From: an uncultured Gammaproteobacteria bacterium
GTDB taxonomy: Bacteria; Patescibacteriota; Patescibacteriia; Magasanikbacterales; UBA922
Length of the DNA stretch: 64,000 nt
Assembly: GCA_965231005.1 (NCBI GenBank)
Contig: OZ246405.1
Span: 365,877 to 429,876, forward strand
Direction: 5' to 3'
The first letter of the stretch is position 1; each line of letters starts with the position of its first letter. A program made the translations under genes and the position numbers. The notes below the pieces were generated by a model that saw nothing but the letters and a program-made list of their open reading frames with translations, ran no database searches and was not told the origin of the DNA. Shown one piece after another: positions 18,666 through 63,400 of this stretch.

Positions 18666-18667
18666 CT

Positions 18668-20399: not shown

Positions 20400-20428
20400 A
20401 ATATAGCAAAATGTTAATGTTTTGTCAA
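20400..20428 (-). promoter_or_regulatory. Sigma70-like promoter TTGACA-N17-TATATT (minus strand), duplicate of the 19410-19438 module
   Basis: About 80 percent identical by eye to the 19357-19500 region. Confidence 0.5.
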
Positions 20429-20556
20429 GGGTAAGGTATAAAATCAAAAAAACACCTATTTTAAGATACCTATAAAAAAGCATAAACCCCGCAACGCGAT
20501 GTCACGAGGCTATGCCTTGTGCGCGTGCGGGGTGGTTGACTTGTGTCGTCTCCTTG

Positions 20557-21741: not shown

Positions 21742-21787
21742 TGTGTCCTCCGTGCTGAAATGGATGGGATTGTGGTGAAACCATTTG

Positions 21788-21876
21788 GCTTCACTCGCGG
21801 AGAGAGCGGGATTTGAACCCGCGAGCCCTTTGCAGGACTACTGCTTTTCGAAAGCAGCGCATTCAACCAGACTCTG
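21788..21876 (-). tRNA. tRNA-Ser (anticodon CGA)
   Basis: Hand-folded cloverleaf: GGAGAGA acceptor, CTGCT/AGCAG anticodon stem with loop TTCGAAA, long variable arm, GCGGG-TTCAAAT-CCCGC T-arm. Confidence 0.8.
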
Positions 21877-21892
21877 CCATCTCTCCATAATG

Positions 21893-22106
21893 ACAATTAG
21901 CAATTAACAAAAAACAATTAACAATTTTTTCATCACGACAAACAATATTTTCAGCTTTTAGATGTCGCAGATAACTATCTTTGGTGAAGAAATACAACCG
22001 CCAGCAGTATCAGGATTCGTTCATTATCTTTTTGTAAGATTAAGTAACGGAATAAGAGTTTGTTAGTTGTTAATTGTTAGTTGTTAGTTGTTAGTTTTCT
22101 ATCAAT
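21893..22106. repeat. Family A stop-saturated motif, inverted pair around a spacer
   Basis: Reverse copy at 21893-21924 and forward tandemised copy at 22069-22106. Confidence 0.8.
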
Positions 22107-23465: not shown

Positions 23466-23879
23466 TCAGTGGAGGGATTGTTCTTCTCTTTCGACAAATG
23501 CGTCTGCATGATCTGGCGTCCAAAGCATTGCTTCTTCACCTTTCAGTGTGTAGACAAGTGCTTCTGGCCACCTTCTCATTGCTGCGGTTGCCATCTCAGC
23601 TAGACCTGGTTTGGCACCAGGATTGGACCATTCGCGAGGTGTAATCAAGCGTTCTCTGGCAAGTCGGTGTCGTTCTTCTTTGGGCATGAATACATACTCT
23701 TTGTTGTATCCGCAGCCCTTTGCTGTTCTCGTGTAGATTTCGACTTGGAGTCTGCCAAACATCATGTGTTCATCAAAAATGACGACGAGTTTGACCCAAG
23801 GATGCTCTCGGTCGTAGCGTGAGTACGTGTGCAAAAAAATTGAAGCTTCAATCACCTTGCGTTCGTTTACTGTTGGCAT
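23466..23879 (-). CDS. Hypothetical protein (137 aa) in a G+C-richer cassette
   Basis: GGAGG RBS. An AAAGGGGG motif sits in the leader. Confidence 0.45.
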   Translation of the reverse strand: MPTVNERKVIEASIFLHTYSRYDREHPWVKLVVIFDEHMMFGRLQVEIYTRTAKGCGYNKEYVFMPKEERHRLARERLITPREWSNPGAKPGLAEMATAAMRRWPEALVYTLKGEEAMLWTPDHADAFVEREEQSLH

Positions 23880-25458: not shown

Positions 25459-25506
25459 GGATTTTAAATCCGTTTTAATCTATTCAATCCGTTCGATCCG
25501 TGTTCC
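25403..25506. repeat. Palindromic element (core CCTGCCTGCCGGCAGGCAGG) with AGAACACAGAT/ATCCGTGTTC inverted ends
   Basis: Core at 25421-25440. Imperfect terminal inverted repeats of about 11 nt. MITE-like. Confidence 0.75.
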
Positions 25507-25600: not shown

Positions 25601-27487
25601 ATGAAAGTAACAATGCAAACAACAAGAAGCTTTGTAAGGTTTTGTGCCCTTTCATTTTTTGCATTTGCATTATTCTTTTTTTCATCAGCTCCTGTAGACG
25701 CAAAAAAGCCAGAAGCAAAGGTAAGAGATGACTCATATACTGCGCGGTATGTTTCTCAGACAGAAAAGGATCCAATTTCTATTGAAGCTGGTTCAACAAA
25801 AACAGTAACAATTACTTTTAGAAATAATGGAACGGCTACGTGGAATAATACAGGTAGTCGTTATATTTCTGCATACACAATGGAACCGCGATATCGTGAT
25901 TCTGAATTTAAAGGACCGAACTGGATTGGTGCAAATCAGACAGGGAAAATGGGAGGCGTTATAAAACCTGGAGAGAATGGAAAACTTGCTGTCACACTCA
26001 CTGCTCCAGAAAAAGTTGGCAAGTACACTGAATGGTTTTACCTTGCTGCAGAAAATTATACGTGGGTAAAAGATGGTTATTTCTTTTTAGAACTTAATGT
26101 TATACCAAAGAAAGAAGTTCCAAAAGTAAAAGTTGCTGCAACTGACAATGCTCCATTGGCTGAACAAGCTGCTGAAGAAAAAAAGGAGATTGTATACGCT
26201 GCAAATAATATTGGACAAAATGTTCGTGAAGTTTATGTAAAAGGTGGGGAACAAATTCGACTTATTACACTATTTCAAAATATAGGAGATACTGCTTGGG
26301 AAGAATATGGCATTCTTGCAAATACACCTGTCTCAACAAGTGATTCTCGGCTTTCTTTTGCAGATCAATCATGGCATGACACAGATTTAGTTTTAACAAA
26401 GAGAAAAGTAGTTGAACCTGAACGATCACTAAGAGAAGAATTTTATTTTCGTGCGCCAGCCAAAGAAGGTGACTACACAGCAAGATTTTCTTTGACTGCA
26501 AACACTGTAGACGTTCCAGATGTTTCTGCAGAAGTTGTTGTTCATGTAACACAAGATGCTCCAAGTGATTATAAAAAAGCAACATTCTATGCAGCACCAG
26601 AGCCAGAAGAAGCAGTTCGTCTTGATAGTGAACCAAGAATCCGCGTTGGCATGATGCTTCCAATGGAATTTGTTCAATTCCGAAGTGAAGAAGAGGATTA
26701 TCGTGTGATTGTTGGAGGAGAAGAATTAGGTATTTTGCCGAAAACACATTTAGGAGTGTTTATATTTGATGGGACATATCATTCATTCAAAGGTGCAGAG
26801 GTTGATTATGAAGGTCCAGGATATGTTCGACTTGAACCTGTAAATAATGTTCATGCAATTTATTCATTATCAAACTACGAGCGGTACGTGAAATGGAAAG
26901 GACCAAATAATTTTAATATGTACAGAGGTGCATTTGAATATCGAAAAGGAAAGGTAGATGGTAAGATGTATGCTGTAAATGATTTATTGTTTGAAGATTA
27001 TGTTGCTGGAATTGCTGAGACGAGTAATTTGGCTAATATTGATTATATAAAAGCTCTTCTTGTTGCAGCGCGATCATATGCATATAAAGCAATAGGGAAG
27101 TATCCATTCTTCGATGTTCTTGGAAATACCTATGATCAATTATATCTTGGATATGAAAGTGAACGGCTCATGCAGCGCGTGCTACAGGCACAACAGGAAA
27201 CACGTGGGTACATGGTTACATACGATGGAGAAATTGTGACAACACCATATTTTGCAAATAGCACTGGCATGACAAAAAGTTGGAAACAAGTATGGGGTGG
27301 AAGAAAATCATATCCATGGCTTGTGCCGGTTGAAGCAAAGTATGATCGTGGTCAACCAATGCGAGGTCATGGAGTTGGTATGAGTGCGCGAGATGCTGCA
27401 ATTCGTGCTGACAAAGAGGGAGCTACGTGGCAAGAACTTTTGAAACATTATTATACTGGTGTTGAAGTCGAAAAAATTTATAATTAA
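25601..27487 (+). CDS. SpoIID/LytB-domain protein
   Basis: C-terminal YFANSTGMT...GHGVGMSARDA block typical of SpoIID/LytB. N-terminal signal/TM plus repeat domains. Confidence 0.75.
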   Translation: MKVTMQTTRSFVRFCALSFFAFALFFFSSAPVDAKKPEAKVRDDSYTARYVSQTEKDPISIEAGSTKTVTITFRNNGTATWNNTGSRYISAYTMEPRYRDSEFKGPNWIGANQTGKMGGVIKPGENGKLAVTLTAPEKVGKYTEWFYLAAENYTWVKDGYFFLELNVIPKKEVPKVKVAATDNAPLAEQAAEEKKEIVYAANNIGQNVREVYVKGGEQIRLITLFQNIGDTAWEEYGILANTPVSTSDSRLSFADQSWHDTDLVLTKRKVVEPERSLREEFYFRAPAKEGDYTARFSLTANTVDVPDVSAEVVVHVTQDAPSDYKKATFYAAPEPEEAVRLDSEPRIRVGMMLPMEFVQFRSEEEDYRVIVGGEELGILPKTHLGVFIFDGTYHSFKGAEVDYEGPGYVRLEPVNNVHAIYSLSNYERYVKWKGPNNFNMYRGAFEYRKGKVDGKMYAVNDLLFEDYVAGIAETSNLANIDYIKALLVAARSYAYKAIGKYPFFDVLGNTYDQLYLGYESERLMQRVLQAQQETRGYMVTYDGEIVTTPYFANSTGMTKSWKQVWGGRKSYPWLVPVEAKYDRGQPMRGHGVGMSARDAAIRADKEGATWQELLKHYYTGVEVEKIYN

Positions 27488-27600
27488 TAGAACACGGATT
27501 GAACACCTGCCTGCCGGCAGGCAGGGATGTAACGGATTTTTACGGATCTAATCTGTTTAGATCCGTTTAATCCGTTGGATCTGTGTTCTATTCAGTACTA
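27488..27600. repeat. Palindromic element (core CCTGCCTGCCGGCAGGCAGG) with TAGAACACGGAT/ATCTGTGTTCTA inverted ends
   Basis: Core at 27506-27525. Homologous to 25403-25506. Begins immediately after the SpoIID-like stop codon. Confidence 0.75.
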
Positions 27601-29965: not shown

Positions 29966-29989
29966 ATGGTTACCTACGTGGAGGTGATC

Positions 29990-30367
29990 ATGGATTGGAG
30001 ACATTGGATTTCTACTGGCGACTGCGAAAAAGTCATCCAGGGAATCAAGAGCAAAGAGCCAGCTACTGATGCTCAGCATGAAGAACATGTTGCTGATGCA
30101 ATCCGTTCGCACAAGAGACAGTGCACCAAGGGTGATTCATGCGCTGTTGGAGCAGCTCACGACGAATGGAGGAAAAGTCGTTGTCAGCAAGTCCGTGATG
30201 ACGTGGACAGGGAAGAAGAGTGGCATTTGACTACTCCTGGTGAGTCCATCTTTCACCCGAGTCCGACATACCAAGATGTTTCTGCTGTCTTTTCCACCCA
30301 TGTTGACCTTTGCCCTCTGAAGGAAGAGTGTCCAGCGTGGCGCAGAGTTCCAAGAAGCGGGCTTTAG
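29990..30367 (+). CDS. Hypothetical Cys/His-rich protein (125 aa)
   Basis: GGAGGTG RBS. G+C-richer than the flanks. Confidence 0.5.
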   Translation: MDWRHWISTGDCEKVIQGIKSKEPATDAQHEEHVADAIRSHKRQCTKGDSCAVGAAHDEWRKSRCQQVRDDVDREEEWHLTTPGESIFHPSPTYQDVSAVFSTHVDLCPLKEECPAWRRVPRSGL

Positions 30368-33843: not shown

Positions 33844-33982
33844 TACTAGTTATTAGTTACTAGTTATTAGTTATTAGGACAAAATAGAAATATTTTTTTG
33901 CAAATGAAATAACATATTGGCACAAAACAAAAATTGCAAAAAATCTATTAACTAGTAGCTAATAACTATTATCTAATAATGT
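33844..33982. repeat. Stop-saturated inverted-repeat spacer family C (TTAGTTACTAGTTATTAGT arms)
   Basis: Arms of about 35 nt in inverted orientation around an A+T-rich loop. Other copies at 45958-46066 and 62132-62232. Confidence 0.75.
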
Positions 33983-34683: not shown

Positions 34684-34813
34684 GGTCGTCTCCAAATGTG
34701 TGGGTGGAGGAATGCGTTGGAGTCTATCAAAAATAGACGTAGTATTCTTATCAATAAAAGTAGTTTGTGTCAATTATAGAATCATTCTATTTGAAGAAGA
34801 AATGGGAATTAGA

Positions 34814-34925
34814 AACCTGCCTTTGCCGGCAGGCAGGCTAGAAATTGGAAATTGGGGAATTCTCAAAAGCTATCTTGATCTAGTCCCCAAATTTCTAATT
34901 TCAAATTTCCAGTTTCCAAAAACAA
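34814..34925. repeat. Degenerate palindromic core (CCTGCCTTTGCCGGCAGGCAGG) fused to a family B inverted-repeat spacer (AGAAATTGGAAATTGGGGA arms)
   Basis: Hairpin-capable arms at 34838-34857 and 34883-34916. Other family B copies at 36083-36135, 46801-46888 and 60337-60417. Confidence 0.75.
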
Positions 34926-39625: not shown

Positions 39626-42600
39626 ATGATTCGTAACATACTTCACTCAATGGACTTTGACGCACTCGCGCTTCGCGTTGCTTCGCCAGAGACCGTTCGT
39701 AAATGGTCATATGGTCAAGTAACAAAACCAGAGACCATTAATTATCGTACACAAAAACCAGAAAAGAGTGGTCTATTTGCAGAAGAGATTTTTGGACCAA
39801 CAAAAGACTGGGAATGTTATTGTGGAAAATATAAGAAAATCCGTTATAAAGGAATTACGTGTGACAAGTGTGGTGTTGAAGTAACACATTCACTTGTTCG
39901 TCGTGATCGCATGGGACACATTGAACTTTCATCACCCGTTTCGCATATTTGGTTCCTTCGTTCAATTCCTTCAAAAATTGGATTGATCTTAGACTCTTCT
40001 ATTCAATCACTTGAAAAAGTTATTTACTTTGCTTCATTTATTGTTACTCGCGTAGATGAACCAGGATTAAAAGAAGTCCACGAAGCATTGAAAAAAGAAT
40101 ACAAGACAAAGAAGAAACAGATTGAAAATGAATTCAATCAAAAAATTGCAAACGCAAAAGATAAAAAAGCAGGAAAAGATGTTCTCAAAGAAATTGCAGA
40201 TGAACGTGAAAGAAAAGACGCAATGCTTGATGAAGAATTTGATACAGCAAGCGCAGATTTGAAAGATATTAAAATGCTTTCAATTATTTCTGAAAACAGA
40301 TATCAAGAACTTGCAATGCGATACGGTCATTTGTTTGATGCAGAAATTGGTGCAGCTGCAATTCACACATTGCTCAAACGACTTGATCTTGAAAAAACAG
40401 CAAATCGCCTTGGAGAAGAAATTGAAAAGAGCAAAGGTGCAAAACGAGAACGACTTGTTCGACGTGTAAAACTTTTGAAAAATCTTCACAAGAATAATAT
40501 CCGACCAGAATGGATGATTTTACAAGCAATTCCTGTTATTCCTCCAGATCTTCGTCCTATGGTTGCGCTTGATGGTGGACGATTTGCAACAAGTGATTTG
40601 AATGACTTGTACCGTCGTGTGATTAACAGAAACAATCGTTTGAAACGTCTTATTGATTTGAGTGCTCCAGAAGTTATTTGTCGAAACGAGCGACGCATGT
40701 TGCAAGAAGCAGTTGATGCGCTTATCGACAACAATGCGCGTGCAAGTAAAACAGTGACTGCTTCTACAGGACAAAAACGACAATTGCGCTCACTTGCAGA
40801 TATCTTAAAAGGAAAACAAGGACGATTCCGTCAGAACCTTCTTGGAAAACGTGTTGACTACTCTGGTCGTTCTGTTATTGTGGTTGGTCCAAAGCTTAGC
40901 ATTGACGAATGTGGAATTCCAAAACGAATGGCACTTGAACTTTTCAAGCCATTTGTTATGTCAGAAATTATTAAGCAAGAGCTTGCGCACAACGTTCGAA
41001 GTGCATCACGATTTATTGAATCAAATGCACCAGAAGTGTGGGATATTTTGGAAGATTTAACAAAAACACGACGTGTTCTCTTGAACCGTGCGCCAACACT
41101 TCACCGTTTAGGTATTCAAGCATTTAGACCACAACTTGTAGAAGGAAAAGCAATTCAACTTCATCCACTTGTATGTACAGCATTTAATGCTGACTTTGAT
41201 GGAGACCAAATGGCTGTCCATCTTCCTCTTACAGAAGAAGCAAAATGGGAAGCTGAAAATTTGATGGCATCAGAAAAAAATATTTTGAAGCCAGCAACCG
41301 GTTCTCCTGTGACAGCACCACAACAAGACATTGCGCTTGGTGTGTACTACCTTACAAAGTATGCAGAAGATGATACAGAAGAAGTGAAACGATATTTCTC
41401 AAATATTACAGAAGCAAAGTTTGCATACAAGAGCCGACTTATTTCACTGAAAGAACGTATCAAAGTTCGTTTTGATGACTTAAGTAAATTTGAAGAAGGT
41501 GTTGGCCCAATTATTGAAACATCTATTGGTCGTATCTTGTTCAATGAAATTCTTCCAGAAAAAATTCCATTCTACAACGAAGTTATCACTAAGAAACACA
41601 CAAGTGTTATTATCCAATTACTTCTTGAGTTGTACGGACAAGAGCAAGTTGCTCGTACGCTTGATTCTATGAAAGCGCTTGGATTTAAGTATGTAACAAA
41701 GTCTGGATATTCTCTTGGTATGGATGATTTTGGTCATGTAAAAGAGAAAAAAGAAATTCTCTCAAAAGGTGATGAAGAAATCCAAGTTGTGCAAGATCAA
41801 TATGAACAAGGATTCTTAACAGACTCAGAACGACATTCAAAAGTTATTGAAATTTGGACACAAGCAAAAGATAAAGTTGTTGCTCATAATAAAGAAGGAC
41901 TTGAGCGCGATGGTTCAGTATTTGCCATGATTGACTCTGGTGCTCGTGGTAGTTGGGGACAATTGGGACAGGTTATTGGAATGAAAGGACTTGTGGCTTC
42001 TCCAAGTGGAGACATTATTGAACTTCCTGTAAAAGGAAACTTTAAAGAAGGTTTTGGTGTTCTTGAGTTCTTTATTTCAAGTCATGGAACAAGAAAAGGA
42101 CTTTCAGATACTGCGCTTCGTACTGCAAATGCAGGATACCTTACTCGACGTTTGGTCGATGTGGCACAAGACGTAGTTGTTTCTGAAGATGATTGTGGAA
42201 CAACAGAAGGTGCAGTATTTACTATTGCTGAATCAGATGAAATGGGACAAAAATTGGCAGATCGTGTGATGGGACGTTTTGTTCTTGAAAACATTAAAGA
42301 CGGAAGAAAAACAATTGTAAAAGCGGGTGACGTTGTAACACAAGAAGCAGCTCGAAGTATTCAAAAGGCAGGTGTAGATAGTATTCATGTACGAAGTGTA
42401 CTTCGTTGTGCCATGCCAAAAGGTGTTTGTGTAAAATGTTATGGATATGATCTTTCCAATAACAATGTTGTAAAACATGGGCTTGCAGCAGGAATTGTTG
42501 CGGCACAGTCTATTGGTGAGCCTGGTACACAGTTGACCATGAGAACCTTCCACCTTGGTGGTATTGCTGGTGGTGGAGATATTACACAAGGTCTTCCACG

Positions 42601-43639
42601 TGTTGAAGAATTGTTCGAAGCAAGAAAACCAAAAAGAAAAGCTGCGCTTTCAGAAGTTGCAGGTACAGTAGAAATCGAAGACGCTGATGGAAAAATTATC
42701 ACAAGTCCAACAGGAAGAAAAATATTTGAAGGTCGTCGTGGACAGAAAATTATTAAAGTTCACTTCGAAGGAGTCGATGAAATTCGAATCCGTCTTCGAA
42801 AAAGCGATGATGTTATGGTTGAACCTGGAGACAAAGTGAAAAAAGGTGATCTCCTCTTAGTTCGCGGAACAAGCGGAGAAGAAGTAAAAGCAGAATACAC
42901 TGGTTCAGTAAGCAAAGACGGAAAAGATCTTGTTCTTGAATACGAAGGTCGTCATAGCAAAGAATACATTATTCCAATTGGATATAAATTATGGGTAAAA
43001 GATGGCGACACTGTTGAAAAAGGTGAACAGCTTACAGAGGGAAGTATTGATCTTCATCAACTCTTTAAACTTCGAGGACGTGATGCTGTACAAGATTATA
43101 TTTTGAGAGGAATTCAAGATATCTATGCATCTCAAGGACAACGATTGAATGACAAACATATTGAAGTGATTATTCGCCAAATGTTTAGTCGTGTGTATGT
43201 TGAAGATGCTGGTGATACAGATCTCCTTCCTGGTGAAACAATTGAAAAATCTCAATTGTATTATGCGAATGAACAAGCAAAGAAAGACAAAAAGAAAGAA
43301 GCTGTTGCTCGTGAACTTTTCCTAGGTATTAGTAAAGTGTCTCTTTCAACACAGAGCTTCTTGTCTGCTGCTTCGTTCCAAGAAACATCAAAAGTCTTGA
43401 TTAACGCAGCAATCACTGGAAAGATTGATCATCTTGAAGGACTTAAGGAAAATGTGATTATTGGTCGTCTTATCCCAGCTGGAACAGGATATGATCTTGA
43501 AAATCAAGAAGTCGTAAAGGAAGAACCAGTGATTAATACAGATAAAGAGATCTCTACTGATGATTCAGAAGGTGAAAAAGGAGAAGAAAGTCCTGAATCT
43601 TCAGAAAATGAAGAAAAAGAAGTTGATTCTGAAGAATAA
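39626..43639 (+). CDS. rpoC: DNA-directed RNA polymerase subunit beta prime
   Basis: Zn-finger CYCGKYKKIRYKGITCDKCG, NADFDGDQM catalytic motif and conserved C-terminal regions. Confidence 0.97.
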   Translation: MIRNILHSMDFDALALRVASPETVRKWSYGQVTKPETINYRTQKPEKSGLFAEEIFGPTKDWECYCGKYKKIRYKGITCDKCGVEVTHSLVRRDRMGHIELSSPVSHIWFLRSIPSKIGLILDSSIQSLEKVIYFASFIVTRVDEPGLKEVHEALKKEYKTKKKQIENEFNQKIANAKDKKAGKDVLKEIADERERKDAMLDEEFDTASADLKDIKMLSIISENRYQELAMRYGHLFDAEIGAAAIHTLLKRLDLEKTANRLGEEIEKSKGAKRERLVRRVKLLKNLHKNNIRPEWMILQAIPVIPPDLRPMVALDGGRFATSDLNDLYRRVINRNNRLKRLIDLSAPEVICRNERRMLQEAVDALIDNNARASKTVTASTGQKRQLRSLADILKGKQGRFRQNLLGKRVDYSGRSVIVVGPKLSIDECGIPKRMALELFKPFVMSEIIKQELAHNVRSASRFIESNAPEVWDILEDLTKTRRVLLNRAPTLHRLGIQAFRPQLVEGKAIQLHPLVCTAFNADFDGDQMAVHLPLTEEAKWEAENLMASEKNILKPATGSPVTAPQQDIALGVYYLTKYAEDDTEEVKRYFSNITEAKFAYKSRLISLKERIKVRFDDLSKFEEGVGPIIETSIGRILFNEILPEKIPFYNEVITKKHTSVIIQLLLELYGQEQVARTLDSMKALGFKYVTKSGYSLGMDDFGHVKEKKEILSKGDEEIQVVQDQYEQGFLTDSERHSKVIEIWTQAKDKVVAHNKEGLERDGSVFAMIDSGARGSWGQLGQVIGMKGLVASPSGDIIELPVKGNFKEGFGVLEFFISSHGTRKGLSDTALRTANAGYLTRRLVDVAQDVVVSEDDCGTTEGAVFTIAESDEMGQKLADRVMGRFVLENIKDGRKTIVKAGDVVTQEAARSIQKAGVDSIHVRSVLRCAMPKGVCVKCYGYDLSNNNVVKHGLAAGIVAAQSIGEPGTQLTMRTFHLGGIAGGGDITQGLPRVEELFEARKPKRKAALSEVAGTVEIEDADGKIITSPTGRKIFEGRRGQKIIKVHFEGVDEIRIRLRKSDDVMVEPGDKVKKGDLLLVRGTSGEEVKAEYTGSVSKDGKDLVLEYEGRHSKEYIIPIGYKLWVKDGDTVEKGEQLTEGSIDLHQLFKLRGRDAVQDYILRGIQDIYASQGQRLNDKHIEVIIRQMFSRVYVEDAGDTDLLPGETIEKSQLYYANEQAKKDKKKEAVARELFLGISKVSLSTQSFLSAASFQETSKVLINAAITGKIDHLEGLKENVIIGRLIPAGTGYDLENQEVVKEEPVINTDKEISTDDSEGEKGEESPESSENEEKEVDSEE

Positions 43640-43671
43640 TTTGGCTTAGATTAGCAAAAAAAGACCACTGC

Positions 43672-43700
43672 TACGCCCCCGATTTTCGGGGGCTTTGCAG
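43672..43700 (+). terminator. Rho-independent terminator after rpoC
   Basis: GCCCCC-GATTTTC-GGGGGC hairpin followed by TTTG. Confidence 0.6.
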
Positions 43701-43749
43701 TGCAAGCGCTACATGAAGACATAACATTTTATAGCTTGTGCTGCGGAAC

Positions 43750-43777: not shown

Positions 43778-43952
43778 AAGCAGTTCCTTACAAAGCTCAG
43801 AGGAGCCGCCATTATTGTATTTGTCCAAGTACAATTATTGCGGTTTCTCTGTCATAAACGCAAGACAGCAGAAAAACGTAAGTCCCAAACCCCAACCCAA
43901 AACCCAGACAAGGACAATCAGCGACCACCTGGTTGCTACAGAGGAGGCAGCA

Positions 43953-45824
43953 ATGAAGATTTCCTACACGAAAGCCCTGCTCAGTCTCATGGTGGTCGCG
44001 TGCTTCACGGCATGTTCCACCACGGATGAGCCGGTCAACAGCGACACCAAGGCCGACGGGTCTGCGCTGGACGGAAGTTCGTCTGACGCAGGTTCGAGCG
44101 AAGACGTTCCCAAAGACATCGGAAGTCCTGATGTTGGCAAGGACACGGCCGAACCGGTCGACGCCAATCTCGGGCCGTGCCACGGCAAGAAGAACGGCGA
44201 CGAGTGCGACGACAGCAACCCCTGCACCACCGACGACGTTTGCACCGATGGCACCTGCGAGGGTGACGCGGTCAAGTGCGACGATGGCAACACCTGCACC
44301 AAGGATACGTGCAACAAGAAAGGCAAGTGCGAAGTGTCCTACCCGGACGACCTGAAGTGCGAGGACGGCAACAAGTGCACCATCGGTGACACATGTCAGG
44401 CCGGCAGCTGCATTGCAGGCAAGAAGAAGGAATGTTCGGAAGACGGCAACAAGTGCATCAAGTGGCAGTGCTTCCCGACCGAAGGATGCAAGTCCGAGAT
44501 CAAGGAAAACTTCTCGTGCGATGACAGCAACACCTGCACCAAGGATGACAAGTGCGACAGCGAGGGCAAGTGCAAGGGCGGAGGTCTGATCAACTGCAGT
44601 GATGGCAACCCGTGTTCCATCAACACCTGCGATTCCAAGACCGGATGTACTGGTACGCCCAAGGCTGGTCCTTGTGACGATAACAACCCGTGCACGGAGA
44701 ACGACTACTGCAAGGATCAGCAGTGCTTCGCTGGCAAGCTCAAGATCTGCAACGACAGCAAGCCTTGCACTGACGACCAGTGCAACTTGAACGACGGGAC
44801 ATGTTCGTACACGCCGGGTTCAGGCTCCTCGTGCAACGACAACAACTCGTGCACGACCAAGGACACCTGCAACAACGGCAAGTGCGAAGGCGTCAACGAC
44901 TTCAAGTACTGCAATGACGGCAATTCGTGTACGGAGCAAGACAGTTGCATCGGAGGAAAGTGCGTTGGCAAGACCAAGCAGTGCAATGACCAGAACCCCT
45001 GCACCAAGGATTCGTGCAAGCAGACCGGAACTGGTTGTACCTACGAGCATCTGAAGGGCGATCCGTGCGAAGACGGCATCCTGTGCACCATTGGTGAGCT
45101 TTGCTCCAAGGGTAAGTGCATCGGCGGCAAGGAGAAGAACTGTGACGATGGCAACATGTGCACCAAGGACTCGTGCGATAGCAACACGGGCAAGTGCGCG
45201 AATGACAAGGATCCTATCAAGGGTAAGGACTGCAACGATGGTAACAAGTGTACCGAAAAGGACTCGTGCATAGATGGCACTTGCAAAGGTGATGCACTCA
45301 ACTGTGAAGACGGTAAGGTCTGCACAGATCAAAGTTGCAATCCAGCCAAGGGCTGTGTCTTTACCAGCAAGAATGGGGCGAAGTGCGACGACAAGAATGC
45401 TTGTACGGACACGAGCGTCTGCAAGGGGACGGTCTGCGTTCCCTTGAAGATCACTCAGTGTCCGAACGGTACCAAGTGCAAGCCGAACATCTGCAATCCA
45501 AAGACTGGCCTGTGCGAGCTCAAGGAAAAGAACTGCGACGACAGCAACTTCTGTACGAAGGACTACTGCGATGCCAAGTTCGGTGTGTGCAAACATGTCG
45601 CTCACAAAAACGGCAGTACATGCAGCGATAACGACATCTGTACTCAGGGTGATGTGTGCAACAGCGGGAAGTGTATTGGCAACCCGCCGACCAAATGGTG
45701 CAAGGATGACAACAAGTGCACCAGCGATGCCTGCAACTCGCAGACCGGGGTGTGCGAGTTTACGTGCTTGGTTCCCAAGGTAAACGGCGTTTGTCCGCTG
45801 AACGACCCGATCGCCTGCAAGTAG
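43953..45824 (+). CDS. Cysteine-rich-repeat lipoprotein (about 25 tandem C-x-D-x-N-x-C-T-x-D-x-C modules)
   Basis: GAGGAGG RBS. Signal peptide with Cys lipobox (VVACFTAC). G+C-rich. Repeats resemble the myxobacterial-type Cys-rich repeat, with DGN/DSN-CT cores. Confidence 0.7.
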   Translation: MKISYTKALLSLMVVACFTACSTTDEPVNSDTKADGSALDGSSSDAGSSEDVPKDIGSPDVGKDTAEPVDANLGPCHGKKNGDECDDSNPCTTDDVCTDGTCEGDAVKCDDGNTCTKDTCNKKGKCEVSYPDDLKCEDGNKCTIGDTCQAGSCIAGKKKECSEDGNKCIKWQCFPTEGCKSEIKENFSCDDSNTCTKDDKCDSEGKCKGGGLINCSDGNPCSINTCDSKTGCTGTPKAGPCDDNNPCTENDYCKDQQCFAGKLKICNDSKPCTDDQCNLNDGTCSYTPGSGSSCNDNNSCTTKDTCNNGKCEGVNDFKYCNDGNSCTEQDSCIGGKCVGKTKQCNDQNPCTKDSCKQTGTGCTYEHLKGDPCEDGILCTIGELCSKGKCIGGKEKNCDDGNMCTKDSCDSNTGKCANDKDPIKGKDCNDGNKCTEKDSCIDGTCKGDALNCEDGKVCTDQSCNPAKGCVFTSKNGAKCDDKNACTDTSVCKGTVCVPLKITQCPNGTKCKPNICNPKTGLCELKEKNCDDSNFCTKDYCDAKFGVCKHVAHKNGSTCSDNDICTQGDVCNSGKCIGNPPTKWCKDDNKCTSDACNSQTGVCEFTCLVPKVNGVCPLNDPIACK

Positions 45825-45957: not shown

Positions 45958-46066
45958 ATAGTTATTAGATATTAGTTACTAGTTATTAGTCTTGATTTTA
46001 CCTATACATTATTATATTGTATCTATACTAAACTAATACCTAATACCTAGTAACTAATAATTAGTA
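45958..46066. repeat. Family C stop-saturated inverted-repeat spacer
   Basis: TAGTTATTAGATATTAGTTACTAGTTATTAGT ... ACTAATACCTAATACCTAGTAACTAATAATTAGTA. Confidence 0.75.
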
Positions 46067-46072: not shown

Positions 46073-46804
46073 ATGTCCGGCCATAGTAAGTGGAGCAAAA
46101 TTCGTCATAAAAAAGGAAAAGCAGATGCAGCACGAAGTAATATTTTTACCAAGTTATCACGCGGCATTACTGTAGCAGCACGAGAAGGCGGTGGAGATTT
46201 AGATATGAATTTTAGTTTGCGTCTTGCAGTAGAAAAAGCAAAGGCAGCAAATATGCCAAAAGATAATATTGAACGAGCCATAAAGCGTGGAACAGGTGAA
46301 TTAAAAGATGGTGCAGTCATAGAAGAAATTTTGTACGAAGGATTTGGCCCAGAAGGTATTGCATTTCTTGTTGATGCAGTCACAGACAACAAGAACAGAG
46401 CAGTTAGCGAAATAAAACATGCGTTTTCAAAATATGGTGGGTCACTTGGTGGACCTGGAAGTGTTCAGTGGCAGTTTGAACACAAAGGGGTAATCAGATT
46501 TACTACAGACAAAAAAAATAGTATCCCAGATTGGGAAACAGCACAGCTCGAACTTATGGATGCAGGTGCAGAAGACATTATTGAATCAGAAGAAGGCGTT
46601 GAAATTATTACAAATATGAAGCAGTTTCAACCGACGACAAAGGTATTTGAAACACTTGGCATTGAAGCAGATGAATCTGGAATTGAATGGATTGCAAAAG
46701 AGTCTCTCTCTTTAGATGAGCAAGCCTCTGAAAAAGTGGAAAAACTTTATGACGCGCTCGACGAGCTAGATGATGTGAGGTCGGTGTTTACAAATGAAGG
46801 TTAG
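46073..46804 (+). CDS. yebC: YebC/PmpR-family transcriptional regulator
   Basis: N-terminal MSGHSKWSKIRHKKGKADAARS is diagnostic. Three-domain length. Confidence 0.9.
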   Translation: MSGHSKWSKIRHKKGKADAARSNIFTKLSRGITVAAREGGGDLDMNFSLRLAVEKAKAANMPKDNIERAIKRGTGELKDGAVIEEILYEGFGPEGIAFLVDAVTDNKNRAVSEIKHAFSKYGGSLGGPGSVQWQFEHKGVIRFTTDKKNSIPDWETAQLELMDAGAEDIIESEEGVEIITNMKQFQPTTKVFETLGIEADESGIEWIAKESLSLDEQASEKVEKLYDALDELDDVRSVFTNEG

Positions 46805-46888
46805 AAATTGGAAACTGGAAATTGGGGATTGTAGAGAGATATTTTTTGTTAAATCCCGAATTTCTAATTTCTAATTTCCAATTTCTAT
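46801..46888. repeat. Family B inverted-repeat spacer
   Basis: AGAAATTGGAAACTGGAAATTGGGGA ... TCCCGAATTTCTAATTTCTAATTTCCAATTTCT. It abuts both the yebC stop and the ruvC start. Confidence 0.75.
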
Positions 46889-58954: not shown

Positions 58955-58971
58955 TCGAAATTTAGTAAAGA

Positions 58972-58998
58972 CAGGGCCCTAAAGGGCCTTGTTTTTTT
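58972..58998 (+). terminator. Rho-independent terminator after pnp
   Basis: CAGGGCCC-TAAA-GGGCCTTG hairpin with T-run. Confidence 0.75.
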
Positions 58999-59121
58999 AA
59001 AAGTAAAAAACCTTACTGTCATTGCGAGGAGCGAATGTGAATGAGTGACGAAGCAATCTCCTGGGCATACATTAATTCTTCTTGTTCTTTTTGTAACCAA
59101 AAAGAACCAAAAAGTTTCGAG

Positions 59122-59290
59122 GGTGGCAGATGCGCTTCTTATATCTGTATAACACTCCCTTTTATCCGCTCGGCCTCTTTCGATCGTCTCGACGAGAGTC
59201 AACTTCCAAAAATACATCGAGTGGAACAGGACTCAACTTTAGAGGCCTCGCTCGGCGCGCCTGCCTGCCGGCAGGCAGGCTGCCACCCCA
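59122..59290. repeat. Long-range inverted repeat (GGGTGGCAG ... CTGCCACCC) enclosing a CCTGCCTGCCGGCAGGCAGG core at 59260-59279
   Basis: Sixth copy of the palindromic core. Nearby GTCATTGCGAGGAGCGA / TCTCGACGAGAGTCAAC segments resemble the flanks of the 3210-3307 copy. Confidence 0.6.
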
Positions 59291-59378
59291 AACCCCAAAG
59301 TTCCAACACTGTTTATTATCTATGCTTTTGACTAAGCTTGATTTTTTTGTCTTAGTATGGTTTAATTGTTCCGATTAC

Positions 59379-59460
59379 GGGGGTGTGGTGAAATTGGTAT
59401 ACACGGCAGCCTTAGGAGCTGTTGCCGCGAGGCGTGAGAGTTCGAGTCTCTCCACCCCCA
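59379..59460 (+). tRNA. tRNA-Leu (anticodon TAG)
   Basis: Hand-folded: GGGGGTG/CACCCCC acceptor, GCAGC-CTTAGGA-GCTGT anticodon arm, 13-nt variable arm, GAGAG-TTCGAGT-CTCTC T-arm. Confidence 0.75.
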
Positions 59461-59486
59461 CTGCTACGCTCAAGCAAAGCTTGAGC

Positions 59487-59543
59487 TTCGCAGTGCAGGC
59501 ACTGCATGTCGCTCTACAAGATTGGAGCTTCGCAGTGCAAGCA
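59487..59543. repeat. Direct repeat GAGCTTCGCAGTGCA(G/A)GCAC x2 plus a GCTCAAGC-AAA-GCTTGAGC hairpin just 3' of tRNA-Leu
   Basis: Two 20-nt copies 16 nt apart. Possible att-like or terminator structure. Confidence 0.5.
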
Positions 59544-59603
59544 CAAATTTGATTTCTTTATATAAGTGCGTTCATTTTGGAAGCGCATTTATTGGAGGAG
59601 ATC

Positions 59604-60221
59604 ATGAACGAAGAAACACGGAAGCTTATAGCTCTTTGGCAAAAAAAGTACGGCACCGATTCATTCGAGCGCGGAAAGCACGATAGGGAGTCGTTCGAGC
59701 TCCAAATAGTGGAAACGTGCCGCCTGACTGAACCTGATTTGAGCAGGATTGAGTTTTGGGAGCCGTCTCGGACTGCTTCGCAGAAACTGGCATTCATGAG
59801 GTATTCTGACTTGTACGAGCGCGCGCTTGACCTTGATGCTATGACTGGGTTGCAGGACATGCTGCACATCCTGGCACTTGTTGACTCTTTCCCAGAGCAG
59901 CTGTTACATGGCGTGATTGTTGCGTTCATGGGGGTTCTGCCGCTTGGTCAAGGATTCGCATATATCCAAAGAATTGATGGCGTGTGGAGCATCGGCATTG
60001 CCAACCTTCCTCACTTCAACTACGTACCGTTCATCCCAAGGACCCGGTGTAAATGGAGGAATCCTTTTGACACTCTTGCTCCCTTCGACTACGTCCCAGA
60101 TTTGAAACCAACATACGGACTCGTATTTGCAAGAGTACGACCTCAGAAGTCAGGCCCAAGGCCTTACCCGCAGATCATCTTCAATCAACACGATTCCTTT
60201 GCAATGTGCGGAGGTCTCTAA
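59604..60221 (+). CDS. Hypothetical protein (205 aa), G+C-rich
   Basis: GGAGGAG RBS ahead of the second in-frame ATG. No recognisable domain. Confidence 0.5.
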   Translation: MNEETRKLIALWQKKYGTDSFERGKHDRESFELQIVETCRLTEPDLSRIEFWEPSRTASQKLAFMRYSDLYERALDLDAMTGLQDMLHILALVDSFPEQLLHGVIVAFMGVLPLGQGFAYIQRIDGVWSIGIANLPHFNYVPFIPRTRCKWRNPFDTLAPFDYVPDLKPTYGLVFARVRPQKSGPRPYPQIIFNQHDSFAMCGGL

Positions 60222-60336
60222 TCCCGAACTACACATCAACCTGGCGATTGTCTCAAAACCTTCGCCGCAAGGAGAATGTTCGGGGACTATCGAAAACACA
60301 TCTCAATGAGGTGTTTTTTTGATGTTAAAAAAAGAT

Positions 60337-60417
60337 TAGAAATTAGAAATTGGAAATTCGGGATTTTTCAAAAAAATGGTTTGTTATGTCCCTAATTTCT
60401 AATTTCCAGTTTCTAAT
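60337..60417. repeat. Family B inverted-repeat spacer
   Basis: AGAAATTAGAAATTGGAAATTCGGGA ... CCCTAATTTCTAATTTCCAGTTTCT. Confidence 0.7.
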
Positions 60418-60478
60418 TATTATTTTCTTAATTTAAAATAACAGCTGGTATAGATTGTAAATAGTAGATGACAAAATA

Positions 60479-60507
60479 TTGACTATACGTATATTGTATG
60501 ATATACA
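60479..60507 (+). promoter_or_regulatory. Sigma70-like promoter TTGACT-N17-TATACA
   Basis: Sits 30 nt ahead of the AAGGGGG RBS. Confidence 0.5.
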
Positions 60508-60542
60508 TTCCATACCCAAGAACTACTACAAGGGGGTCTACA

Positions 60543-61988
60543 ATGGGTAACAACGACCAAGTTCATTTCACTACTCCGTTCATTTCTTGCGGAACATCTG
60601 GTGCTCGCGGGTTCCACTTTACCGAGGTTACTCCAGCGCTGGCACAAGGCTACGCGTTTGGCTTGGCCATGATTACCAAGGCCAAGACTGGACGGTCTGT
60701 CTACTACGTCGCCTGTGATCAGCGCGAGACTGCTCAGCTTCTCGGCCTCAGCGCGTGCTATGGCATTCGCCTGGCTGGTGCTGACGTGGTCTGGCTCGGC
60801 TGTGTGTCGACCGGTGTGTTCTCCGCGATGATGCACGTGGGCAAAAAGAAAGGTGAAAACGTGGCTGGTGGCGTTCTCATCACTGGCTCGCACATGCCGC
60901 CCGAGCGGATTGGCATCATCCCGATCAATGCTGATGGCACGTACTGCACAACCGAAGTGACCGATGCAATTTCGGGTCGGCTCAAAGGAATGCGCAGTAT
61001 TTCACTCGCACTGGATACTGAAAACGGTAACACCATCGTTGGCAAGCAGACAGTGATTCACCCCGAAGCAAGCTACCTCGCATACAAGGGGTTCATCAAC
61101 AGTTTCATCGGTCAGGAAGAGCTCCAAGGGATGCGAATGCTCATTGACGTGGGCAATGGAACTGGTGGTGCACCTGCCAACGTCCTGTGCAGGCACTTCG
61201 GCATCACCCATGATCTTCTTTTCCCCCATCCAAAGCCACAGCCAGATCGGCCAAGCGAGTGCAAGCCTGAGAGCTGCACCGAAGCCATCAATCGCATGAA
61301 AGCGGGCTTCTACGACATTGGCCTGTGTCTGGATGGTGATGCTGACCGCGTGATGATGATCGACGCAAGCGGCAACGTGGTTCCGGCCAATGTGGTCGCA
61401 GCCATCTTCATCAAGAACTTGCTCAAGAAAGGGGAGTCCATTGTCACACCGACCAACTCCAGTGGCGTGGTTTATCAGCTGTGCGAGGACATGGGCGTTC
61501 AGGTGTTTCCGTGCAAGATCGGTCAGCCCGATACTGGGCGTGCGATCAACGAACACAGCGCTCACTTCGGTTTCGAGGCAACTTGCAAGTACGCGTTTTC
61601 GCAAATGGCCTTCCCCTGGTTCGATGGTCTGTTCGCCGGATTCATGATGATGAAGGTCATGCAGATGACAGGGAAGACCCTGGCTGAGCTCGCTGCTGAG
61701 CATCCGGTGTTCTCGCGTGTTGAGATCAACGTCGAGTGCGATTCGGTCAGCAAAGGCCAGGTCGAAGCGATTCACGAGAAGATGTGCCAAGCATTTGGCG
61801 CAAAAGCCGTCAACGTAGACTCGATCAACGGTCTGCGCCTGATGCAGGAGGACTTCACCTGGGTCATGGTGCGTCCAAGCGGTACTGAGCCGCTGATCCG
61901 CATCTACGTCGATGGTCCGGACAAGATGAAGGTTGATGCACTCGGAAGTGCTGCCAAAATCATCGTCGAAGAGGTCATGGGCCTGTAG
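60543..61988 (+). CDS. Phosphoglucomutase/phosphomannomutase-family (alpha-D-phosphohexomutase) enzyme
   Basis: Active-site Ser loop TGSHMPPE, metal-binding loop DGDADR, four-domain length. Very G+C-rich compared with the backbone. Confidence 0.75.
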   Translation: MGNNDQVHFTTPFISCGTSGARGFHFTEVTPALAQGYAFGLAMITKAKTGRSVYYVACDQRETAQLLGLSACYGIRLAGADVVWLGCVSTGVFSAMMHVGKKKGENVAGGVLITGSHMPPERIGIIPINADGTYCTTEVTDAISGRLKGMRSISLALDTENGNTIVGKQTVIHPEASYLAYKGFINSFIGQEELQGMRMLIDVGNGTGGAPANVLCRHFGITHDLLFPHPKPQPDRPSECKPESCTEAINRMKAGFYDIGLCLDGDADRVMMIDASGNVVPANVVAAIFIKNLLKKGESIVTPTNSSGVVYQLCEDMGVQVFPCKIGQPDTGRAINEHSAHFGFEATCKYAFSQMAFPWFDGLFAGFMMMKVMQMTGKTLAELAAEHPVFSRVEINVECDSVSKGQVEAIHEKMCQAFGAKAVNVDSINGLRLMQEDFTWVMVRPSGTEPLIRIYVDGPDKMKVDALGSAAKIIVEEVMGL

Positions 61989-62065
61989 TCAGTTCAGAAC
62001 AAATCAAAACAATTCAGGAGATTCCTACGCCCGGCAGCGAAAGTTGTCGGGTGTTTCAATTTTGG

Positions 62066-62232
62066 CAATTAACAACTAACAATTAGCAATTAACAAAAAA
62101 GTATAGAAAGATTCTTTAAGTTAAGAATGATGTTACTAGTTATTAGTTACTAGCTAATAGTTAATAGACAATACAAGAAAGATTTAAACCTAGATAGCTA
62201 ACAACTAGTAACTAATAGCTAATAACTAATTT
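62066..62232. repeat. Family A motif (reverse orientation) followed by a family C inverted-repeat spacer
   Basis: CAATTAACAACTAACAATTAGCAATTAACAA at 62066-62096. Family C arms at 62132-62232. Confidence 0.75.
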
Positions 62233-62307: not shown

Positions 62308-63126
62308 ATGAATTCTTATAATCCATACAGAGATAGAAGGCGCCGTCGCCGAAGACGTAGGGGGGTGTCCGAAGAGGATATTCGTGCTGCAGAAGCAGAG
62401 CGTGAAAGAAAGGCAATAGAATGGGATGAAAGAGAGAAAAAAAAGAAAGAGTTAAATGAGCAATTTAGTGCAAAACTGAAAGAAGTTTCAGAGAGAAAGG
62501 AAGGTGAATCAGAAAAGCAATATTTGGAGAGAGCTGCAGACATTATAAATTTTGGTGGCATGTATGCACCAGAGGTTGCTTTTGATTTTAAAGAATTACT
62601 TGATGGCATGAATGCTCTAAGGCGCGAAGAGCATGAAGTAACTGATGAAGAGGATGAATTTCAGTACACAGATGAGCTGGCTTTTGTTTTTTTGGATAGA
62701 ATCTTACAAATGCCAGAAGTTCCAATTTCATTCTTAAAAGACATAAAAGGTTCTGATGCATTTACTCATCTGGATTCAGTCATTGCAGACTTGCATAATT
62801 CAGAAAGTCAATCGATTTCAGAAGCAACACTCCAAAATGTTGCACGATTTGCTTTTGAATCTGAAAATCAGCAATTGTTGGAAATGGCATTGATTCTTGT
62901 TGACATGTATCCTGCAGATGTTGTTTTGGCAATTGCAAAAGGAGACCTAGTTCCAATTCATGCACAAGCTCGAGAAGTATCTTCATACAAACTCATTGTT
63001 CGACATCTAAATGAAATGGGAAAAAGTGCAGGTGTAACATTTGTGTTAGATGAATCAAAAGGTACGTATCGGTCTGGTGATGATGTTATGCATGACATAA
63101 TTATTCGTGCTCAAGCTGCAGCATAA
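62308..63126 (+). CDS. Hypothetical protein with an N-terminal poly-Arg tract
   Basis: ORF with an R9 run, a charged coiled-coil-like N-terminus and a globular C-terminus. Confidence 0.4.
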   Translation: MNSYNPYRDRRRRRRRRRGVSEEDIRAAEAERERKAIEWDEREKKKKELNEQFSAKLKEVSERKEGESEKQYLERAADIINFGGMYAPEVAFDFKELLDGMNALRREEHEVTDEEDEFQYTDELAFVFLDRILQMPEVPISFLKDIKGSDAFTHLDSVIADLHNSESQSISEATLQNVARFAFESENQQLLEMALILVDMYPADVVLAIAKGDLVPIHAQAREVSSYKLIVRHLNEMGKSAGVTFVLDESKGTYRSGDDVMHDIIIRAQAAA

Positions 63127-63127: not shown

Positions 63128-63400
63128 ATGGAACATCATTTTGATATTCTTACACATTCTTCAGACCTTCCCACCATTGATCTTCACTCAATTCCATCTG
63201 CAAAAGAAGCATTGGAAGAACTTGATTTATCAATTGCAAAGTTGTTGGTTAACAATGAATATTGTAGAATTATATATGGAATAGGAGAAGGTGTTCTGAG
63301 AAATATTGTTGCAGAATATTTAGATAATAGTCCCTATGTTGCATCTTGGAAAATAGAGGATAGTGGTGGAAGTTGTATTGTTTTTTTCAAACATAATTAA
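63128..63400 (+). CDS. Smr-domain protein
   Basis: IDLHS...AKEALEELD...RIIYGIGEGVLRNIV...SGGSCIV pattern of the small MutS-related domain. The start is 1 nt after the upstream stop. Confidence 0.6.
   Translation: MEHHFDILTHSSDLPTIDLHSIPSAKEALEELDLSIAKLLVNNEYCRIIYGIGEGVLRNIVAEYLDNSPYVASWKIEDSGGSCIVFFKHN

Follow-up and report, generated by a model that had tools for sequence, protein, structure and literature searches.

Genomic islands beside tRNA genes have the attachment (att) sites of tyrosine integrases at the tRNA 3' ends, and hotspots of accessory genes between conserved core genes are known in, for example, marine bacteria and enterobacteria. Integron cassettes are each followed by an attC site with R''/R' core sites (RYYYAAC ... 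GTTRRRY), and integrons also have the intI integrase. On a smaller scale, Nostocales cyanobacteria reportedly carry small dispersed repeats (SDRs), units of 21-27 nt that are said to sit in tandem heptamer repeats or mini-transposons and to show nested insertions, with SDR1-8 described from a cyanobacterial subgroup. Bacteria of the candidate phyla radiation (CPR), or Patescibacteria, have tiny genomes that are thought to change mainly by loss. Here, we analyze a tRNA-Leu(TAG) gene and its surroundings in a small CPR genome (Magasanikbacteria), within a window of 64,000 nt of contig OZ246405.1 (GCA_965231005.1, positions 365,877-429,876, forward strand).

The original prediction took this tRNA for an att site at a tRNA-targeted integration point, citing an inverted repeat with a palindromic core upstream and direct repeats, a hairpin, and G+C-rich DNA downstream. 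We find that the att interpretation is half right: right on the place, wrong on the signatures, although most of what had been observed is real. The reading that we prefer, at a probability of about 0.6, is that the tRNA 3' flank is a recombinase-free slot for accessory genes that lies where a conserved transcription unit ends and was filled stepwise by single-gene units, with independent small repeats on both flanks of the tRNA.

A variable interval between tRNA-Leu and Smr

We retrieved 80 related loci via PNPase, nearly all from Candidatus Magasanikbacteria or other Patescibacteria, the closest at 85%, 80%, and 70% PNPase identity. S15-NYN-pnp-tRNA-Leu(TAG) is a conserved order: a tRNA scan of 54 loci placed the tRNA after pnp in 36, and locus L086 has it there too. 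Where both the tRNA and an Smr gene are present (24 loci), the arrangement is S15-NYN-pnp-tRNA-Leu(TAG)-gap-Smr, and the distance from tRNA to Smr ranges from -4 to 5756 nt across relatives and is 3666 nt in our genome. In six relatives (L008, L009, L010, L015, L029, and L063), the site is empty, with Smr lying -4 to 103 nt past an intact tRNA. The filled relatives hold 0.4-5.8 kb of mutually unrelated genes between the two anchors. This empty-site comparison, which the original prediction had called for, makes the tRNA 3' flank an insertion point on comparative grounds.

Our genome has three genes in this interval, hyp205, an alpha-D-phosphohexomutase of the PGM/PMM family (hereafter PGM), and hyp272 (Table 1), none with a counterpart in any of the 80 related loci. 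The G+C content at third codon positions (GC3) is 0.56 in hyp205 and 0.66 in PGM vs. 0.19-0.29 in host genes, to which hyp272 (0.24) conforms. About 2.6 kb of very G+C-rich DNA had been described downstream of the tRNA. The stretch at 59.6-62.0 kb is indeed GC-rich, but it is made of two separate genes, hyp205 and PGM, split by a spacer of 24-32% GC (60275-60575), and not of one block. Both have a foreign codon composition, and in the AT-rich spacer behind each lies a canonical terminator (62027-62054 for PGM); a promoter-like site precedes PGM (60468-60497).

Two of the three genes are orphans. A search of 5.8e9 proteins with hyp205 returned only hyp205 itself, and Pfam, PHROG, and PADLOC gave no match to it; an exhaustive HMMER search added one weak remote match, between residues 80-146 and a repeat module of a 3716-aa cadherin-like adhesin, and its AlphaFold2 model is unusable (pLDDT 38). 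The database search with hyp272 likewise returned only hyp272. The PGM translation contains TGSHMP, DGDADR, and RPSGTEP, which we take to be the usual phosphohexomutase motifs. Its best homologues are other CPR proteins of at most 42% identity in varied contexts, two of them beside a nucleoside phosphorylase, and no donor could be named from them. The top homologue (42%) belongs to the high-GC Magasanikbacterium L086 (GCA_016234235.1), where the order is pnp-tRNA-Leu-198aa-Smr-PGM (L086:2911-7890); the PNPase of that genome is 69% identical to ours, and its PGM has a GC3 of 0.83 vs. 0.56-0.65 in neighboring genes. PGM may thus be a travelling or a long-resident neighbor of the slot.

The gap genes of relatives are also unrelated to each other, except for the pairs L016/L045 and L039/L064 and a weak match between L064 and L086. 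High GC3 recurs among them (0.57 in L006, 0.74 in L007, 0.68 in L016, 0.69 in L043, and 0.63 in L045). A Pfam scan of ten larger gap open reading frames (ORFs) matched CMAS methyltransferase, FG-GAP, GT2 with polysaccharide deacetylase, radical SAM, PMT_2, and rhodanese, and by these domains the matched ORFs appear to be ordinary envelope or metabolic genes. Because the gap varies in length and contains unrelated, partly foreign genes, we regard the tRNA 3' flank as a recurrent slot for gene gain.

Under this reading, tRNA-Leu(TAG) would belong to a conserved core block, S15-NYN-pnp-tRNA-Leu-Smr, whose tRNA-Smr space would act as the accessory-gene slot, and different Magasanikbacteria lineages would have filled it independently. 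The slot in our genome would then consist of three single-gene transcription units, and insertion would fall in a harmless place, the end of a transcription unit. The locus resembles flexible genomic islands in its fixed core anchors (tRNA and Smr), its variable, unrelated content free of mobility genes, and the cargo of the relatives, which includes cell-envelope and metabolic genes (glycosyltransferase, PMT_2, CMAS, and FG-GAP). It differs in that our comparison runs across species and genera instead of strains and that recombination via the flanks is presumed.

Tests of integration at the tRNA 3' end

Among the features of an integrative element, presence or absence of the insert among relatives and the deviating composition of hyp205 and PGM (hyp272 being host-like) are found here, whereas an integrase gene and a far-border copy of the tRNA 3' segment in direct orientation are not. 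No tRNA-derived k-mer of at least 11 nt recurs in the window or in 50.5-69.6 kb, so the fragment of the tRNA-Leu 3' end that had been proposed for the far border is missing from both. The sole shared 12-mer (43665, CCACTGCTACGC) consists of the last 3 nt of the tRNA plus trailer. Pfam, run on the slot and taken from precomputed annotation, gave no recombinase domain in 46.6-69.6 kb, that is, in the slot and the 5.6 kb beyond the window where an integrase had been suspected, and none was found among the ten gap ORFs of relatives. The missing far-border repeat counts against an att site, and the differing organization of the relatives counts for insertion.

Broader searches gave little that bears on the locus. 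A metagenome scan with the lineage-specific tRNA 3' end matched only unrelated organisms, for example in high-GC tRNA-Lys genes, and a literature search for tRNA islands in Patescibacteria gave nothing relevant. When 58955-59620 was compared with the phage collection by blastn at distant settings, the matches listed covered only the tRNA gene.

These results bear on a classical alternative, namely that the insert is an island or prophage remnant placed by a tyrosine integrase at the tRNA-Leu 3' end, whose integrase and distal att site were lost or eroded and whose attL remnant would be the hairpins and repeats beside the tRNA. We consider it unlikely, though several observations would fit. The site is occupied or empty among relatives, and the insert is foreign in composition. 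The only other tRNA in the window, tRNA-Ser(CGA) on the minus strand (21797-21886), also has a GC-rich orphan block directly at its 3' end (18306-21886 region), with four ORFs of GC3 up to 0.80. In the relative L019 (4567-4684), the 3' end of tRNA-Leu plus trailer is repeated directly over 19 nt (TCTCCCGCGGCACAAGGAC) at a distance of 99 nt downstream, as part of a partial second copy of the T-arm and acceptor that is interrupted by a GC-rich hairpin. This is a genuine att-like duplication, so insertion events in the clade have already copied this tRNA end.

Against such an eroded element, no domain of an integrase, a recombinase, or a phage was found in the slot, in the 5.6 kb past the window, in the tRNA-Ser block, or in the ten gap ORFs of relatives, and PHROG and PADLOC searches with slot genes and with the tRNA-Ser block, next to Pfam, gave no integrase either. 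The four ORFs of the tRNA-Ser block have no Pfam match, and the three that were tested have no PHROG or PADLOC match either. The lack of any tRNA fragment of at least 11 nt, in 50.5-69.6 kb or elsewhere in the window, and the coverage of the tRNA gene alone by the listed phage matches point the same way. Moreover, the insert is not one element: it is built of three units of one gene each, of which the first two have canonical terminators of their own, and the hairpin family supposed to mark attL also occurs away from any tRNA.

Compared with known tRNA-adjacent islands, the locus shares lineage-specific, compositionally foreign genes directly 3' of a tRNA and a site that is empty or differently filled in relatives, but it differs in having neither an integrase nor a repeat of the tRNA 3' end, in its three single-gene units, and in repeats that are not tRNA-derived. 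Because there is neither an integrase nor a duplicated tRNA end, genes were most likely gained in the slot by recombination that needs no dedicated att site. Candidates are illegitimate recombination and recombination steered by the conserved tRNA gene and Smr on either side.

Two further relatives have partial duplications on the other side of the tRNA. L034 and L037 contain incomplete copies of the tRNA 5' half (GCCGACGTGG...GGTAGACACGCCTG) 90 nt upstream of an intact tRNA-Leu. The copy in L037 is interrupted by a hairpin of the GC-rich CCCGCC...GGCGGG type, and L034 has a shorter fragment beside a similar hairpin.

Small repeats on both flanks of tRNA-Leu

The tRNA-Leu(TAG) gene itself lies where it had been placed, being called by both ARAGORN and Rfam, and it was the only credible match in Rfam scans at the gathering threshold and at E <= 10. 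Across relatives, the distance from pnp to the tRNA is 88-4600 nt. The equivalent pnp terminator in relatives sits directly before the tRNA promoter, and in compact relatives (L006, L008, L009, L024, L063, L064, and L086; spacers of 88-154 nt in compact genomes), the promoter follows almost immediately, with its -35 overlapping the T-tract of the terminator. The sequence TTGAyt/TTGACA-N17-TATGGTTTAAT, with an extended -10 TG, precedes tRNA-Leu(TAG) in about ten relatives, including L006, L008, L009, L010, L020, L024, L046, and L086, and its role as the tRNA promoter is predicted from the consensus. In our genome, the distance is 424 nt, and about 320 nt of stacked small repeats are interposed between the pnp terminator and the conserved promoter (Table 1).

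Table 1. Features of the tRNA-Leu(TAG) locus and related elements in the window (coordinates are window positions).
Feature	Position	Strand	Basis or remark
Third copy of the hairpin family, after the stop of a 1337-aa rpoC-like ORF (39626-43639), upstream of a GC-rich gene	43666-43702	+	z = -5.17
pnp intrinsic terminator, GGGCCCTAAAGGGCC stem-loop then T7	58971-58998	+	Sequence and inverted repeat
Head of TGTCATTGCGAGG...GCAATC repeat element (begins CTGTCATTGCGAGG counted from 59016)	59017-59058	+	13-mer terminus recurs
AT-rich hairpin within the repeat pile-up	59079-59112		Inverted-repeat scan
MITE-like carrier with terminal inverted repeats GGGTGGCAG/CTGCCACCC (perfect over 9 bp), palindrome inside right arm	59121-59289	+	Single copy in window
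Perfect 22-nt palindrome GCCTGCCTGCCGGCAGGCAGGC, (CCTG)2CC/GG(CAGG)2, sixth window copy	59259-59280	.	0 expected in shuffles
Predicted tRNA-Leu promoter: -35 TTGATT 59338-59343, 17-nt spacer, extended -10 TATGGTTTAAT 59356-59366	59338-59366	+	Consensus
tRNA-Leu(TAG), CCA not encoded	59379-59460/61	+	ARAGORN; Rfam 58.5 bits
Hairpin A: CACTGC-TAC-GCTCAAGC-AAA-GCTTGAGC-TTC-GCAGTG, 3x3 internal loop, 3' arm = direct repeat 1	59459-59495	+	Fold
Hairpin B: outer stem CACTGC/GCAGTG, different interior, 3' arm = direct repeat 2	59500-59537	+	Fold
hyp205, orphan, strong Shine-Dalgarno sequence (GGAGG), GC3 0.56	59604-60221	+	Terminator 60298-60314
PGM, alpha-D-phosphohexomutase (PGM/PMM family), four domains, 481 aa from an ATG preceded by a Shine-Dalgarno sequence, GC3 0.66	60543-61988	+	Pfam
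AT-rich heptamer tracts (TTAACAA/TTAGCAA/TTAGTTA), long AT hairpins, right edge of GC-rich genes	62069-62225	.	Repeat scan
hyp272, orphan, host-like composition, last slot gene	62308-63126	+	GC3 0.24
Smr-domain gene, conserved right anchor of slot	63128-63400	+	Pfam Smr

The pile-up shares almost nothing with the rest of the window or with loci L006-L094, the exceptions being the palindrome and the TGTCATTGCGAGG terminus in L059, and no Rfam family matched it even at E <= 10. The 13-mer terminus of the TGTCATTGCGAGG element recurs in L010, L048, and L059. In the corresponding pnp-tRNA spacer, L010 carries an entire element, 122 nt long and bounded by inverted repeats of 13-14 nt (CTGTCATTGCGAG/CTCGCAATGACAG). 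In the closest relative, a run of N within the spacer (L006:12347-12445) is flanked by an identical 55-nt duplication of terminator and promoter, probably an unmerged scaffold join or masking, so the true spacer would be about 100 nt. A 140-aa ORF (59130-59552) that spans the pile-up and the tRNA is annotated as a gene in public assemblies (L001/L002 12483-12905) but almost certainly does not represent a real one.

The 170-bp long-range inverted repeat described upstream of the tRNA corresponds to the 59121-59289 carrier. Its perfect 9-bp arms (59121-59129 and 59280-59288) do surround the palindromic core, and 4-5 bp more pair when the core is looped out. However, the same 801-nt region contains four perfect 9-nt inverted pairs where we estimate that about one would be expected by chance, and because such pairs are near chance level, the arm pair alone is weak evidence. 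Folding of 59121-59289 gives z = -4.07 because of the palindrome; the interior without it gives z = -1.48, no better than shuffles. The carrier has terminal inverted repeats of the kind known from miniature inverted-repeat transposable elements (MITEs), but no flanking target-site duplication is seen in the sequence and no second copy exists in the window or in L006-L094. The motif CTTGWTTTTTT, at 58988 and 59337, was considered as a target-site duplication around the upstream insert; such a duplication is possible and is not needed because the copy at 59337 is accounted for by the conserved -35 region of that tRNA's promoter.

The fold and its place just upstream of the tRNA might also suggest that 59121-59289 is a structured non-coding RNA, a leader or small RNA, functionally linked to tRNA-Leu. 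We judge this highly improbable, as the interior folds like shuffled sequence once the palindrome is removed, and the pile-up lies 5' of the conserved tRNA promoter and therefore outside the tRNA transcript. Relatives with compact spacers lack the element altogether, and we found no homologue in the window or in L006-L094 and no Rfam match at E <= 10. An att site would, moreover, lie on the opposite side of the tRNA from the pile-up. The inverted repeat and the palindrome, once read as an att signature, instead belong to dispersed repeat families inserted 5' of the tRNA promoter.

The core upstream of the tRNA had been counted as the sixth in the window, and this holds: in window order, the perfect 22-nt palindrome is copy six, with exact copies at 3235, 25420, 27505, and 59259 and two variants, one with a 2-nt insertion (34822) and one split by a 41-nt nested hairpin (13749-13812). 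Several copies sit within larger repeats. The copy at 3211-3307 is inside a mini-element with TGTCATCTCGA terminal repeats, those at 25405-25505 and 27490-27590 are inside hairpins of ACGGATT/AATCCGT-type heptamer-like repeats, and the variant at 34800-34920 is inside a hairpin of TAGAAAT/GGAAATT-type heptamers. The composites at 25405-25505 and 27490-27590 are near-identical (GAACACGGAT...ATCCGTGTTC hairpins of ACGGATT-type heptamers, with the palindrome at the same position), share one orientation, and bracket a 628-aa ORF (25601-27487). At 13749-13812, the arrangement is CCTGCCTGC-[41 nt]-CCGGCAGGCAGG, with the imperfect 41-nt hairpin nested at the palindrome center, inside a heptamer-type carrier.

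Outside the window, the exact 20-mer occurs in two distant Magasanikbacteria, L057 and L062, the L062 copy lying right behind pnp where the contig stops. A further 35 IMG/VR stretches of 38-68% GC contain it between flanks that are unrelated, and many of these copies are again between low-complexity heptamer-like arms; the contigs that share the 20-mer span 33-68% GC and include putative phage contigs. On one IMG/VR contig, the 20-nt palindrome CCTGCCTGCCGGCAGGCAGG lies in the variable loop of a phage tRNA-Met (L119:2239-2330), which ARAGORN still calls as a 92-nt tRNA, and on two other contigs it lies in D-loop-like and truncated tRNA-like sequences (L126:515-534 and L096:8616-8635). A literature search for the palindrome sequence matched only unrelated zebrafish primers.

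The palindrome is thus a very small dispersed repeat. Like the SDRs of Nostocales, it is short (20-22 nt), intergenic, located in heptamer tracts or in mini-elements with terminal inverted repeats, and in one case the site of a nested insertion, but its sequence and host phylum differ, and the 20-mer is shared across unrelated contigs, including putative phage. Because its host is a CPR bacterium, it would be an analogue of SDRs and not a member; the resemblance appears to be one of behavior, on which membership cannot be claimed. The small repeats here share with REP/REPIN sequences (PMC3116915) the form of short GC-rich imperfect palindromes that are intergenic and often follow genes, and MITEs recall the carrier with its terminal inverted repeats and the clear 122-nt element in the same spacer of L010. 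There are differences from both: no RAYT or transposase turned up in Pfam searches of selected window ORFs, a target-site duplication is not apparent, the window has a single copy of the carrier, and the 64 kb contain only three copies of the hairpin family described below, next to six of the palindrome.

Downstream of the tRNA, both features named in the original prediction exist. Two 20-nt direct repeats (59483-59502 and 59525-59544) are 19/20 identical and 42 nt apart, and at 59468-59486 a perfect stem of 8 bp, GCTCAAGC/GCTTGAGC, closes an AAA loop (arms 59468-59475 and 59479-59486). As an att signature, however, the direct repeats fail, for they are arms of two tandem hairpins, A and B, which together fold with z = -4.21, and a copy of the family at 43666 is away from any tRNA. 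The 43666 copy and hairpin A share a constant frame, CCACTGCTACGC...GCTTYGCAGTGCARGC, and six variable inner-stem pairs, CCCCGA/TCGGGG in the former vs. TCAAGC/GCTTGA in the latter, of which 4-5 differ with all still paired. The three copies in the window compare with 0.12 expected, and no CACTGC...GCAGTG hairpin was found in the related loci or in viral contigs. Right after the third copy lies a 669-aa ORF (43815-45824, GC3 0.74) with a match to the CTDC repeat of Dictyostelium, an unusual finding in a CPR bacterium.

The positions of these hairpins suggest a function. Most relatives examined have a canonical stem-loop and T-run right after the tRNA, where hairpins A and B sit here, and the 175-nt spacer after the rpoC-like gene has no evident terminator besides the 43666 hairpin. 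In the same genome, pnp, hyp205, and PGM end in canonical terminators. Judging by position, the hairpins are most likely dispersed repeats that serve as the tRNA terminator or as a 3' stabilizer. Like intrinsic terminators, they are stable GC-rich stem-loops directly after the tRNA and the rpoC-like gene; unlike ordinary terminators, they have no directly adjacent U-tract, and their outer frame is conserved between copies. A T-rich stretch begins about 12 nt past hairpin B.

A different view of the same hairpins would make them recombination sites of some unknown system of cassette capture or hairpin-directed insertion, marking the 5' boundary of captured genes at 43.7 and 59.5 kb. All three copies are immediately upstream of GC-rich, foreign-looking genes (43815-45824 and 59604-61988), their constant frame and variable tip resemble hairpins that are recognized by proteins, and the shared 12-mer CCACTGCTACGC takes in the last 3 nt of the tRNA. 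Yet only two loci are involved, so the association with foreign genes could be due to chance, and none of the other six GC-rich blocks in the window is edged by a hairpin of this kind. No sequence common to the right borders was found, the AT-rich tracts found there are not significantly tied to GC-rich blocks (Fisher p = 0.13), and no recombinase was identified. In terms of integrons, inspection of the hairpins by eye, with no attC model run, gave no GTTRRRY/RYYYAAC pair, and the region has no integrase. Altogether, we find capture at these hairpins quite doubtful. Equally doubtful is a broader version in which the CACTGC hairpins and the (CCTG)2CC/GG(CAGG)2 palindrome are both substrates of an unrecognized hairpin-directed insertion or recombination system. 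If true, such a system would seed insertions beside tRNAs and at gene ends, bringing in foreign genes without a conventional integrase.

Several points weigh against the preferred reading of a recombinase-free slot with independent repeats. The empty-site comparison spans species and genera instead of strains because no available relative exceeds 85% PNPase identity, and the route of gene gain is one that we infer. Both tRNAs in the window have a GC-rich block at the 3' end, which hints at tRNA-directed integration. The 43666 and 59459 hairpins are both at the left edge of a GC-rich gene block and could travel with, or direct, inserted DNA. As terminators, the hairpins were not called by the terminator scan because no T-run lies within 0-2 nt of the stems, a T-tract adjoining the stems being absent. 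Finally, PGM may be an old resident, since its closest homologue shares the neighborhood in L086.

A mosaic genome and the meaning of the slot

The foreign composition of the slot genes has parallels throughout the window. About a quarter of all ORFs have a GC3 of 0.44-0.80 vs. 0.19-0.29 in core genes, and at least eight GC-rich blocks are gene-sized (129-1002, 9.4-9.9 kb, 18.3-21.7 kb, 23466-23879, 29966-30367, 34.1-35.5 kb, 43.8-45.8 kb, and 59.6-62.0 kb). In composition, the genome is a fine-grained mosaic.

Two AT-rich repeat families also recur in the window. TTAACAA-type tracts like those at the right edge of the GC-rich slot genes occur in intergenic DNA at 85-119, 3980-4007, 9976-10010, 21897-21924, 22060-22094, 33850-33877, and 45962-45989. 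They were tried as markers of GC-rich borders, and six of eight tract loci do border GC-rich genes, but the association was not significant (6/21 vs. 2/20 intergenic regions). The second family, of TTAGAAATTGGAAATT-type inverted repeats, occurs between hyp205 and PGM (60335-60423), between yebC and ruvC (46801-46887), at 34839-34916, and also in L031; the 34839-34916 copy is between two GC-rich ORFs and bears the palindrome variant.

Abrupt changes in composition and repeats flanking the GC-rich genes might also arise if the GC-rich DNA were contamination or an assembly chimera joined at the repeats, and the contig of one relative, L062, does end exactly at the palindrome. Still, two independent assemblies from different runs (ERZ930061 and ERZ930065) match the window along 17.3 kb, one with 0 mismatches and one with 1, and this agreement makes chimerism unlikely. 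An NCBI contig of 1.23 Mb also records hyp272, the GC-rich genes are set apart by AT-rich spacers that contain canonical terminators, and synteny resumes on the far side with Smr and TMEM43, as in relatives. An artifact of this kind is accordingly the most improbable explanation that we considered.

Overall, the locus is ordinary, a further example of known things: an accessory hotspot beside a tRNA, palindromic mini-repeats, and hairpins at terminator positions. For genome scans, it teaches that repeats around a tRNA are insufficient for calling an att site, as here they are dispersed mini-repeats and hairpins at terminator positions. The mini-palindrome, shared by widely differing genomes, may be the item most worth a dedicated study, and the constant-frame hairpins might also repay one. 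For CPR bacteria, a fixed slot beside tRNA-Leu, many of whose genes are compositionally foreign or orphans, would show where and how these genomes gain genes, even without recognizable mobility genes.

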